Assembly (NCBI GenBank): GCA_044070495.1
Contig: JBIPSI010000001.1
Location: 128,001 to 192,000 of the forward strand
Source: Spirulina sp.
GTDB taxonomy: Bacteria; Cyanobacteriota; Cyanobacteriia; Phormidesmidales; Phormidesmidaceae
DNA: 64,000 bases
Direction of reading: 5' to 3'
How positions within the stretch are numbered: the stretch's first letter is position 1; every line of letters begins with the position of its first letter. Shown here piece by piece: positions 18,001 through 21,000 of the stretch. A program made the position numbers.

Positions 18001-21000
18001 TATTCGTTGTTTGTTATTCGTTATTCGTTATTTGTTATTCGTTATTTGTTATTCGTTATTTGTTATTCGTTATTTGTTATTCGTTATTCGTTATTCGTTA
18101 TTCGTTATTCGTTATTCGTTATTCGTTATTCGTTATTCGTTATTCGTTCCTAGCAACCAACAACCAGTAACCAACAACCAGTAACCAACAACCAGTAACC
18201 AACAACCAGTAACCAACAACCAGTAACCAACAACCAACATGCCTACTCTTTATGTCACTCAACCCGACGCTGTTTTAAGTAAGAAGTACGAAGCTTTTTC
18301 CGTTGCTCTGCGCCAGGAGGATGGTTCTTGGCAGAAGCGATCTGTTCCGGCCCAGACGGTGGAGCAGGTGGTGCTGATGGGCAATCCCCAAATCACAGGC
18401 GATGCGCTGACCTATGCACTGGAGTTAGGGTTGCCCGTCCACTACCTAACCAGTTTTGGTAAATATTTGGGTTCGGCGTTGCCGGGGCATTCTCGTAATG
18501 GGCAGTTGCGGCTGGCTCAGTATGCGCTTTATTTGGATGCTGAGAAGCGGCTGGCTCTGGTGAAGAACATTGTGGAGGCCAAAATTCATAACCAATTTGG
18601 CGTTCTCTATCGCCATGGGCAGCGGGATAACCCTCTTAAGGCTCGCAAGAAGGCAGCCCAGCAGCAATCGACGCTGGACAAGGTGCGCGGCATGGAAGGG
18701 CTGGCGGCACGGGAATACTTTGCCTGCTGGCCCGCCATGCTGAAGCACGACTGGGGCTTTTCAGGCCGCAACCGTCGTCCGCCCAAGGATCCGGTGAATG
18801 CCCTGCTGAGCTTTGCCTATGCCCTGCTGCGGGTGCAGGTGACGGCGGCGGTGCATGTGGCAGGGCTGGATCCCTACGTGGGTTATCTCCATGAGGTTCA
18901 CCACGGTCAACCCGCCCTGGTGCTCGATTTGATGGAAGAATTTCGTCCGCTGATTGCCGATAACCTGGTGCTGGCAGTACTCAACAACCGCGAGATTCAG
19001 CCCAAAGACTTTACCGAAAGCCTGGGAGCCTACAATCTCTCTGACGCTGGCCGTAAAGCTTTTCTCCAAGCCTTTGAACGCAAAATGACCGATGAATTCA
19101 AGCATCCGGTCTTTGACTACCGCTGTTCTTACCGTCGTGCGATCGAACTTCAGGCTCGTCTGCTTAGTCGTCATTTACAAGAAGATATTCCTTATAAACC
19201 TCTGATGTTGCGGTGAGGGGTGTTGGTTATTGGTTATTGGTTATTGGTTATTAGTTAGGGGGGGTGTGGGGTATGGGTAGGGGGTTTAAGGAGTTGGAGG
19301 TTTATCAATTGTCGGAGCAGTTGGCTGACGCAATTTGGGAGATTGTTTTGACCTGGGATTTTTTCGCTAAAGACACTGTAGGCAAACAATTGGTCAGAGC
19401 TGCCGACAGCATTGGAGCCAATATTGCCGAGGGCACTGGCCGAGGCAGCTACCAAGATAATGCCCGTTTTATAACCATTGCCCGTGGCTCCCTCACCGAA
19501 ACCCAGCACTGGCTCCGCCGTGCCCATAACCGCCAACTTCTCACCACCGACCAAGTCGCCACCCTCAAACCCCTTATCGATACCCTAGCCCCCAAACTCA
19601 ATGCTTATCGCAATGCCATTCTTAATGCGAGGCGTTAATTGTTATTCGTTGTTTGTTATTCGTTGTTTGTTATTCGTTATTCGTTATTCGTTTCTAGTAA
19701 CCAACAACCAATAACCAATAACCAATAACCAATAACCAACAACCAACAACCAACAACCAATAACCAACAACCAATAACCAACAACCATGACAAAACTCCT
19801 CTATCTAATCATTTACGATCTCCCTGACGACAAGGCCGCTAACAAACGCCGCAACCGTCTCCACAAGCTACTGTCGGGCTATGGTCAGTGGACTCAGTAC
19901 AGCGTGTTTGAGTGTTTTTTGACGGCGACTCAGTTTGCGCGGCTACAGGTGCAGCTAGAACGCCTGATTAAGCCAGAGACAGACTCGGTACGACTTTATG
20001 TTTTGGATGCTGGGGCGGTGAAGCGAACGCTGACCTACGGCTCTGAGAAGCCCCGCCAAACTGAGGCGATCATCCTATGATGGAGGGGTGGCAATTTTCT
20101 GGCAAACCTCAGCAAGCCCAATTTCCCTGGGGGGTTCGCCAAAACCTTGGAACCTTGAAAATTCAATACTTTTTGATGATCCACCTAGGGGTAGGAGGTA
20201 TCCTAGAGGGGCGAGAGGCAACCGTTCTTAGGAGGTTCGCCAAAACAAGGGCCAAAACCCTTGCCAGACAAGGCTTCCAGGGCGCGGCCCTCGCCAACCA
20301 CCCAATCTCGGCAACGAGACTGAAACAGGGCTGGTTTGATCCATCCTGAGGATGGATCACTCTCGCCAACCACCCAATCTCGGCAACGAGACTGAAACGT
20401 TTCGGTCTTTGGCGAGCGCCTGCGCCTGGAAAAACTCGCCAACCACCCAATCTCGGCAACGAGACTGAAACATATCTCTGCTGAAATCTCTAGGCTTAAT
20501 CGACATACTCGCCAACCACCCAATCTCGGCAACGAGACTGAAACAGGGCTGGGTCTAGGGCTTCATCAATGGCTCGTTCTGCTCGCCAACCACCCAATCT
20601 CGGCAACGAGACTGAAACCGGTCTCCGTTCTCCTGATCAATAATCTCCGTCCCGCTCGCCAACCACCCAATCTCGGCAACGAGACTGAAACAACGGCCTA
20701 TGGCGACATACGAACAACAACTGAAGCTCGCCAACCACCCAATCTCGGCAACGAGACTGAAACGCGCTGGCACGGCGGGGGGATCGACGCCGCCGTCGAC
20801 TCGCCAACCACCCAATCTCGGCAACGAGACTGAAACACCCACGAAGGCAAATCTAGCTACGCCCCTAGCCTAACTCGCCAACCACCCAATCTCGGCAACG
20901 AGACTGAAACAGTTGTTTGGCCTCCAGCCCTTCGATCCGCTCTTTCTCGCCAACCACCCAATCTCGGCAACGAGACTGAAACTAGTCTGGGGCGCGGTCC

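Follow-up and report, generated by a model that had tools for sequence, protein, structure and literature searches.

Intervening-sequence protein genes between complementary repeat arms: a widespread and possibly mobile cassette in a cyanobacterial cas operon and elsewhere

The cas1–cas2 junction of a type I-D cas4-cas1-cas2 block in Spirulina sp. (genome G000) is filled by a cassette in which a gene of the four-helix-bundle 23S rRNA intervening-sequence protein (IVP) family lies between tandem-repeat arms. An earlier note had described four such genes in this genome and proposed that they work like intervening sequences in mRNA. The locus raises the question of whether such arms are a property of the gene family, and whether they belong to an RNA insert or to a DNA element. 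The window, meaning the whole stretch of 64,000 nt that was analysed, contains the following features.

17361..17408, + strand: extra (AACCAAT)n tract directly 5' of the cas4 ATG
17410..17985, + strand: cas4, host gene
17985..18239, + strand: empty hairpin at the cas4–cas1 junction, of the same repeat family as the cassette
18239..19216, + strand: cas1 (cas1d), type I-D host gene, with its stop at 19216
19217..19272, + strand: 5' arm, (TTGGTTA)x5 at 19223-19257 plus a G-rich leader, beginning at the cas1 stop
19273..19638, + strand: IVP gene (four-helix bundle, 23S rRNA IVP), 121 aa from the ATG
19633..19692, + strand: second same-sense tract, (GTTATTC)n, with local pairing to part of the 3' arm
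19699..19787, + strand: 3' arm, (AACCAAT/AACCAAC)n, complementary to the 5' arm and running into the cas2 ATG
19787..20080, + strand: cas2, host gene

The layout of the cassette is A-IVP-A'-loop-B. An alternative GTG start of the IVP gene is present at 19264, and the opening codons of cas2 encode MTKLLY, compared with MPQKF/LY in arm-free alleles. The IVP protein scored 102 bits against PF05635 (cut-off 33.8) and 96 bits against TIGR02436 (cut-off 24), which places it in the family; PF05635 was the sole domain found in the cassette, and IVP matched PDB 2GSC (Xcc0516, five chains) with an E-value of 9e-10. Its dN/dS against G019 was 0.03. The predicted fold of 19210-19800 (z -7.8) is a long branched stem, the 3' side additionally making a local hairpin of its own, and a sigma-70 scan of 17900-19900 gave no promoter. 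Elsewhere in the window, an MntA/HepT type VII toxin–antitoxin pair lies at 16191-17104 between cas6 and cas4, and a long CRISPR array with a 36-nt repeat occupies 20290-24269.

A PF05635 search gave exactly four IVP genes in G000, at the places listed in the earlier note. Flank complementarity was scored by local alignment of the 200-nt flanks of all ORFs from our own caller, spurious ORFs included. Among 1013 ORFs of 90-160 aa, the IVP genes ranked 1, 2, 3 and 4 (scores 37, 35.5, 34.5 and 19.5; 99th percentile 14.5), and among 4517 ORFs of at least 80 aa they ranked 4, 6, 8 and 19. The arms around the four genes are therefore confirmed as real and as unusual for this genome, and each cassette has a repeat unit of its own, as had been claimed. 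Other parts of the earlier description were narrowed. The term heptamer arms applies to two of the four cassettes, since the unit is an octamer in the kdp cassette (GAAGGTTG/CAACCTTC) and measures 8-9 nt in the dnd cassette. The operon hosts of three copies were verified as cas1-cas2, kdpA/kdpB and dndD/dndE, with the kdp and dnd copies in antisense; the fourth copy, on contig C16, sits within a RAYT-like transposase gene, where it replaces 64 codons of the intact homologue. The reported continuation of the C19 repeat on C5 before dndE is a putative join that crosses a repeat, but an identical layout is present on one G034 contig.

In a quick tree the four genes fell in four separate branches, and the closest relatives of three of them occupied the same site, which indicates that movement is rare. 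Five of the eight genome-wide tracts of the kdp unit lie within 6 kb of the kdp cassette; tracts of the cas unit are more scattered (4 of 30 nearby), and near the C16 cassette its unit recurs nowhere outside the arm itself, while close relatives of the C16 cassette adjoin prfB and carry the C16 unit. Empty hairpins were also seen directly 3' of kdpB (kdp unit, G000:C20:85250-85430), between two hox-like hydrogenase genes (cas-type unit, G000:C51:12880-13069) and in frame within an mfd-like gene (G000:C38:34200-34351), the last two host identities having been assigned by eye. A convergent (GGTGAAG)n/(CCCTTCA)n pair at G000:C12:48228-50105 encloses two ordinary-looking ORFs and no IVP gene.

A cross-phylum set (L001-L133) was compiled from 136 HMM hits, of which 133 were unique and 128 usable, five being without flank; it spans many bacterial phyla and two archaea. 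As a 13-sequence alignment was too diverse, a narrower alignment centred on the L005 subfamily was used for the locus search, and the sample is biased to that subfamily. Median flank complementarity was 20 over the 128 loci, whereas the swapped-partner and shifted-window controls both had a median of 9.5, and scores of at least 20 were reached by 51.6% of the loci, against 1.6% of 16256 swapped and 0.1% of 728 shifted combinations. In a second set, drawn from 58 viral and 2 plasmid loci, half of the unique hits (25 of 50) reached this level, against 1.6%. Nostoc sp. PCC 7120 has IVP genes on two plasmids, one of which scored only 10.5 over the 200-nt flanks. The median paired length was 38 nt over 89 stems. 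Cross-pairing scores of at least 16 were obtained for 81% of 104 pairs with at least 70% protein identity from different genomes, and for 8% of 26 pairs with less than 50% identity within one genome, although relatives do not in general count as independent samples. As judged from these pairings, the repeat unit tracks the IVP protein lineage rather than the host genome.

These controls bear on the simplest explanation, that the arms are chance pairings of abundant tandem repeats. There are 306 tracts in G000, the cas unit alone recurs in 30 tracts across the genome, and the earlier note had itself worried that heptamer tracts are common. Only 10 inverted neighbour pairs within 2.5 kb occur among the 306 tracts, however, and three of these enclose an IVP gene, the fourth gene having been missed because one of its arms is degenerate; common tracts thus fail to explain the arms. 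Chance pairing is also contradicted by the leading ranks of the IVP genes and by four different units in one genome. It was rejected on the swap and shift controls, and we regard it as scarcely credible.

Pairwise IVP dN/dS was 0.02-0.14 in all eight comparisons (the G010 value being based on 28 codons owing to a 1-nt gap), so that purifying selection acts on the protein whether its gene is sense, antisense or nested. This constraint would also be expected of an accessory protein that binds nucleic acid and benefits the host, for instance in defence loci; the repeats would then be its binding sites or by-products of local expansion, and changes of place would reflect ordinary recombination in volatile loci. 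IVP genes are frequent in cas, dnd, DISARM, BREX and RM loci, 18 copies in cas loci are reported in the accessible part of PMC3936711, and dndD–dndE also takes an MNT/HEPN-like pair. Yet IVP genes are also found at housekeeping junctions (kdp, prfB, mraY-murD and nuoC-nuoD), binding sites need neither complementarity across a gene nor a unit that follows the gene lineage, and copies nested within protein loops, or breaking up a transposase gene, have a selfish look. We consider such an accessory role improbable.

Several further observations were made on the locus sets. Along the IVP gene of the L001-L133 set, silent sites flip from G/T-rich at the start to C/A-rich at the end, in 41 of 47 cyanobacterial loci; by arm strength, the counts were 53 of 66 where arms are strong and 14 of 24 where they are weak, and control ORFs gave 347 of 687; the flip may be an extension of the stem, or a record of single-strand mutation on either side of a break. 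Tandem decayed IVP copies with arm repeats between them, consistent with unequal recombination, were found in L008 (G040:C94:1618-2483), and the IVP genes of L025 and L028 are broken by a palindromic insert of the CCCCC...GGGGG type. The cassette is probably undercounted, because in many relatives IVP matches are often near contig ends and arms break assemblies.

The cas1 gene of the window is present in five genomes of the genus. Both cas junctions are free of arms in two of them (G453 and G455), two (G000 and G019) carry the cassette between cas1 and cas2, and in G010 the IVP gene of G000 and G019 lies between cas4 and cas1, where G000 has the empty hairpin; G010 and G000 share 85% nt identity in IVP, with one 1-nt gap, and 82% in cas1. 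At kdpA–kdpB, 4 of 14 loci were filled, nine had a short spacer and one was unresolved. The four filled loci differ in arm unit, with direct rather than inverted repeats in G456 and mixed units in G005. At dndD–dndE, an IVP gene is in antisense in G000 and G034 and a different one in sense in G451 and G010; six genomes have the MNT/HEPN-like pair (by eye), four have no insert, and in G449 the contig breaks off at this point. The site therefore holds both orientations, yet the sense and antisense proteins are visibly different, which bears on the possibility of an invertible element.

Sequence comparison thus distinguishes three allele states, arm-free, arms-only and filled, with the same gene at different neighbouring sites. 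The earlier view of a cassette with its own inverted unit holds, given that arm-free alleles exist and that the unit follows the IVP lineage; the arms at an occupied site are sometimes mismatched or direct. Matched arms are not obligatory, since 43 of the 128 loci scored below 16 and the kdp cassettes of G456 and G005 depart from the inverted pattern. When junctions were compared by eye with empty alleles, the spacer and first codons of cas2 were found replaced, as were the 64 codons at the C16 site; none of these alleles showed a clean insertion with target-site duplication. Small target duplications could have decayed, because the empty alleles are only 81-87% identical. In the compared alleles, landings replace some host sequence rather than duplicate a target, and the same unit recurs at nearby gene junctions.

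In G005 and G038, which belong to different families, 95%-identical IVP genes lie inside a large methyltransferase gene, at two different loops. The host gene follows an SNF2 helicase gene (DISARM drmD in G038), and its frame is open through inserts of 154 and 176 aa. G038 holds an arms-only form at the site used in G005, and 12 arm-type peptide tracts were counted in its methyltransferase gene; neither site carries such an insert in three other homologues, the remaining three of six (G164, G166 and G178) having been left out for want of a usable ORF. Between G005 and G038, the nested IVP frame differs by 27 synonymous and 6 replacement codons (dN/dS 0.05), both host halves are conserved (0.08-0.12) and the filler has a dN/dS of 5.9, so that selection acts on the IVP frame and both host halves and not on the filler. 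Synonymous divergence was 0.45 for IVP and 0.75-1.16 for the host; double-coding constraint may be a partial cause of the lower value.

Over the 128 loci, the -1 frame was free of stops in 12, the +1 frame in none and the three antisense frames in 2, 1 and 2. Eight of the 12 open -1 frames span long host ORFs resembling RM-type methyltransferases, from six phyla. The count of 12 in 123 loci compares with 0.82 expected from synonymous shuffles, an expectation that is too low because the shuffles overestimate stops overall (7.0 against 5.6 seen); for the nested subfamily, towards which the query was biased, no more than 2-3.5 stops are expected. In the 50 viral-set loci, the antisense frames were stop-free in 4, 1 and 5 cases, against 6 for the -1 frame. 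A profile of the -1-frame peptide matched 793 protein clusters (E<=0.001). Among the best 150 of these, 56 had long flanks on both sides, and 55 were scanned after one repeat protein was dropped: 22 had RM/methyltransferase Pfam domains (two of them DUF1156), four were histidine kinases, two nSTAND1 and one DUF559, and 26 had no Pfam match, one of these being BREX PglX by NCBIfam. Of 16 longer proteins found by a word-based search, 11 carry PF01555. The four G000 copies have 3-7 stops in the -1 frame and so are not dual-coding. In a quick tree of 114 columns, the nested copies required 4 changes, against 5.5 when shuffled, which fits one origin as well as several. As a separate observation, a DnaE2-like polymerase gene (by eye) hosts an IVP cassette in its -1 frame at L224:2501-2839.

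In the nested copies the open host frame is a requirement of read-through by the ribosome, whereas excision would not need one. A self-splicing intron and translational bypass were rejected because the nested copies keep the host frame open. Whether selection on the arms acts at the RNA level was asked through G-U pairs, which an RNA-selected stem should favour on the transcribed strand. Wobble pairs numbered 177 on the IVP strand and 207 on the other, showing no bias, and none appeared by class of host orientation save for a weak lean in nested copies (11 in the sense strand against 3, p 0.057). Among 125 loci, 45 were in sense and 27 in antisense within operons, 13 lay between convergent and 11 between divergent genes, eight were nested and 21 unknown; the orientation of the cassette is free relative to the operon. 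The Bacteroidetes motif TAnnTTTG, a promoter motif according to the accessible part of PMC7366714, was present in the 5' arm or between arm and gene in 10 of 47 viral-set loci, against a background of 2.2%, and in only 1 of 15 Bacteroidota genome loci. The part of the B. thetaiotaomicron dRNA-seq supplements of that paper that was searched gave no match to IVP family names, and one locus tag appeared there in terminator rows only.

The earlier note proposed a stem around the gene in the mRNA, and in the full form of this proposal RNase III would cut the paired arms of the host transcript. The operon mRNA would thereby be split or tuned and the IVP segment set free, as happens in 23S rRNA. The fold makes this feasible, given the long stem of the window cassette and the 38-nt median pairing; G000 has three RNase III family matches, cutting of the Coxiella rRNA intervening sequence by RNase III is shown in the accessible text of PMC4990558, one arm-bearing copy lies in 23S rRNA, and the lean in nested stems points the same way. 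As a stem is strand-symmetric, antisense copies could pair in host mRNA too. Beyond this feasibility the proposal gained no positive support. There was no overall wobble bias, 24 of the 125 loci lie between convergent or divergent genes, and a promoter lies within the 5' arm of some cassettes. Nested hosts are a particular difficulty: both halves of these genes are conserved, yet a cut left unjoined would destroy them, and if the ends were rejoined the frame would have no need to stay open. RNase III may cut intergenic copies; as a general explanation we hold the proposal to be unlikely, if slightly less so than the accessory role.

A route through RNA has also to be weighed in the form of retro-mobility, in which the excised stem-loop RNA would be reverse-transcribed by a borrowed RT with IVP as an Avd-like cofactor, the cDNA integrating through the arms. 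PF05635 resembles the Avd of diversity-generating retroelements (DGR), and is described as homologous to it in the accessible part of PMC10053308, and G000 has two RT genes, each behind an Avd-looking ORF (by eye). The four IVP genes, however, lie on contigs other than those of both RT genes, the G-U comparison gave no RNA-strand signature, and internal promoters would exclude the 5' arm from the RNA. We rate this route as very unlikely.

A mobile cassette looks like a better fit than an RNA insert that is cut out. The reading we prefer, with about an even chance of being right, is a recombinase-free mobile DNA cassette, in which an IVP gene between lineage-specific complementary arms would move by repeat-guided recombination; the movement we infer from allele comparison, and any part that IVP plays in it would be speculative. 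Quasi-palindrome template switching and repeat-mediated recombination are established processes. In such a cassette the arms would fold back on single-stranded DNA, where template switching and slippage could keep them complementary and yield A-IVP-A'-B forms. Recombination between arms and cognate hairpins would relocate or delete the IVP gene, leaving empty hairpins, and longer jumps would be carried by homologous exchange of host loci, plasmids and prophages. Tolerated sites would lie between genes, in rRNA loops, where RNase III would remove the cassette as in the classic intervening sequence, and in protein loops if the insert lacks stops in the -1 frame, which would let the ribosome read through a filler of 150-180 aa. 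More speculatively, the IVP pentamer might bind single-stranded arms and favour its own spread.

A wider version, which we offer tentatively and with less confidence, would make IVP genes the coding members of a widespread group of recombinase-free selfish hairpin cassettes, whose protein promotes moves between cognate hairpins, which invade protein genes by double coding, and for which rRNA intervening sequences are one niche. If this holds, the empty hairpins left behind would be a source of unexplained bacterial heptamer repeats, and nested copies, through slippage of their 7-nt arms, could put defence methyltransferases under phase variation, a possible switch in those of BREX, DISARM and RM systems. 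The preferred mobile cassette would connect three puzzles: the function of the S23p/PF05635 protein, convergent heptamer repeats, and the origin of ORF-bearing rRNA intervening sequences, which is left open in the accessible text of PMC4990558. The 793 clusters with a -1-frame peptide would form a large natural set of same-strand nested genes, which annotation may miss.

The cassette is widespread and apparently unpublished. No description of repeat arms around the IVP family outside rRNA, or of nested copies, was found in the accessible literature, which took in few subscription papers and which has supplements that could mention flanks. Scattered IVP ORFs in CPR rRNA inserts are noted in the accessible part of bioRxiv 10.1101/2024.02.27.582315, and the seen parts of PMC5524665, PMC8700078 and PMC8491059 give table mentions with no bearing here.

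Among known systems, insertion sequences, including the IS200/IS605 HUH types, are mobile and hairpin-ended; the cassette differs in that it has no transposase domain, its junctions replace host sequence and its ends are copy-variable repeats. A classical IS or MITE was rejected, as no own or cognate transposase and no clean insertion with target-site duplication were found. Rickettsia palindromic elements, REP/REPIN and intragenic MITEs are non-coding hairpin elements without tandem units that are tolerated in frame in protein loops. They resemble the arms-only inserts and differ in that here a whole conserved gene rides in a second frame. Avd of DGRs binds nucleic acid; no template repeat, target gene or adjacent RT was seen at the four G000 loci, although no HMM scan aimed at RTs beside the cassettes was made, and membership in a DGR was rejected, the RTs of G000 being on C15 and C54, away from the IVP genes. 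Those two RT genes (G000:C15:273-1748 and C54:10311-11814) probably belong to DGRs in their own right, each being near an FGE-sulfatase-like gene and behind an Avd-looking ORF (partners by eye).

Bacterial heptamer repeats, known in cyanobacteria as STRR, share with the arms tandem units of 7-8 nt, convergent pairs able to form hairpins, an end before start codons and occurrence in frame inside genes; here, by difference, a gene lies within the pair and the unit goes with the lineage of that gene. In the accessible text of PMC4692102 (convergent pairs of GGGAATC in Xanthomonas) and PMC4679880 (TAACTGA repeats in Beggiatoaceae), four-helix or intervening-sequence genes were not mentioned. Closest are the S23p intervening sequence of Coxiella burnetii and the ORF-bearing 23S intervening sequences of Leptospira, which have the same protein family and terminal complementary sequences as here. 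The four G000 copies share the terminal complementary stem and lie outside rRNA (cas, kdp, dnd and the RAYT-like gene), and the cassettes in general occupy protein-coding operons in either orientation or are nested in frame in protein genes. Excision by RNase III belongs to the Coxiella element, whereas the present cassettes are known from DNA; the Coxiella ORF is described as expendable in the accessible part of PMC4990558, whereas the ORF here is under strong purifying selection. The two layouts are linked by L020, a copy with heptamer arms in a 23S rRNA gene (one of 10 related loci scanned with Rfam), and on our best reading rRNA intervening sequences are one special case of the IVP cassette. 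Known before were the two to three tandem GACAGAT heptamers 5' of the Coxiella S23p ORF, variable among strains (PMC4990558, accessible text); apparently new are the arms around IVP genes outside rRNA and their nesting in protein genes.
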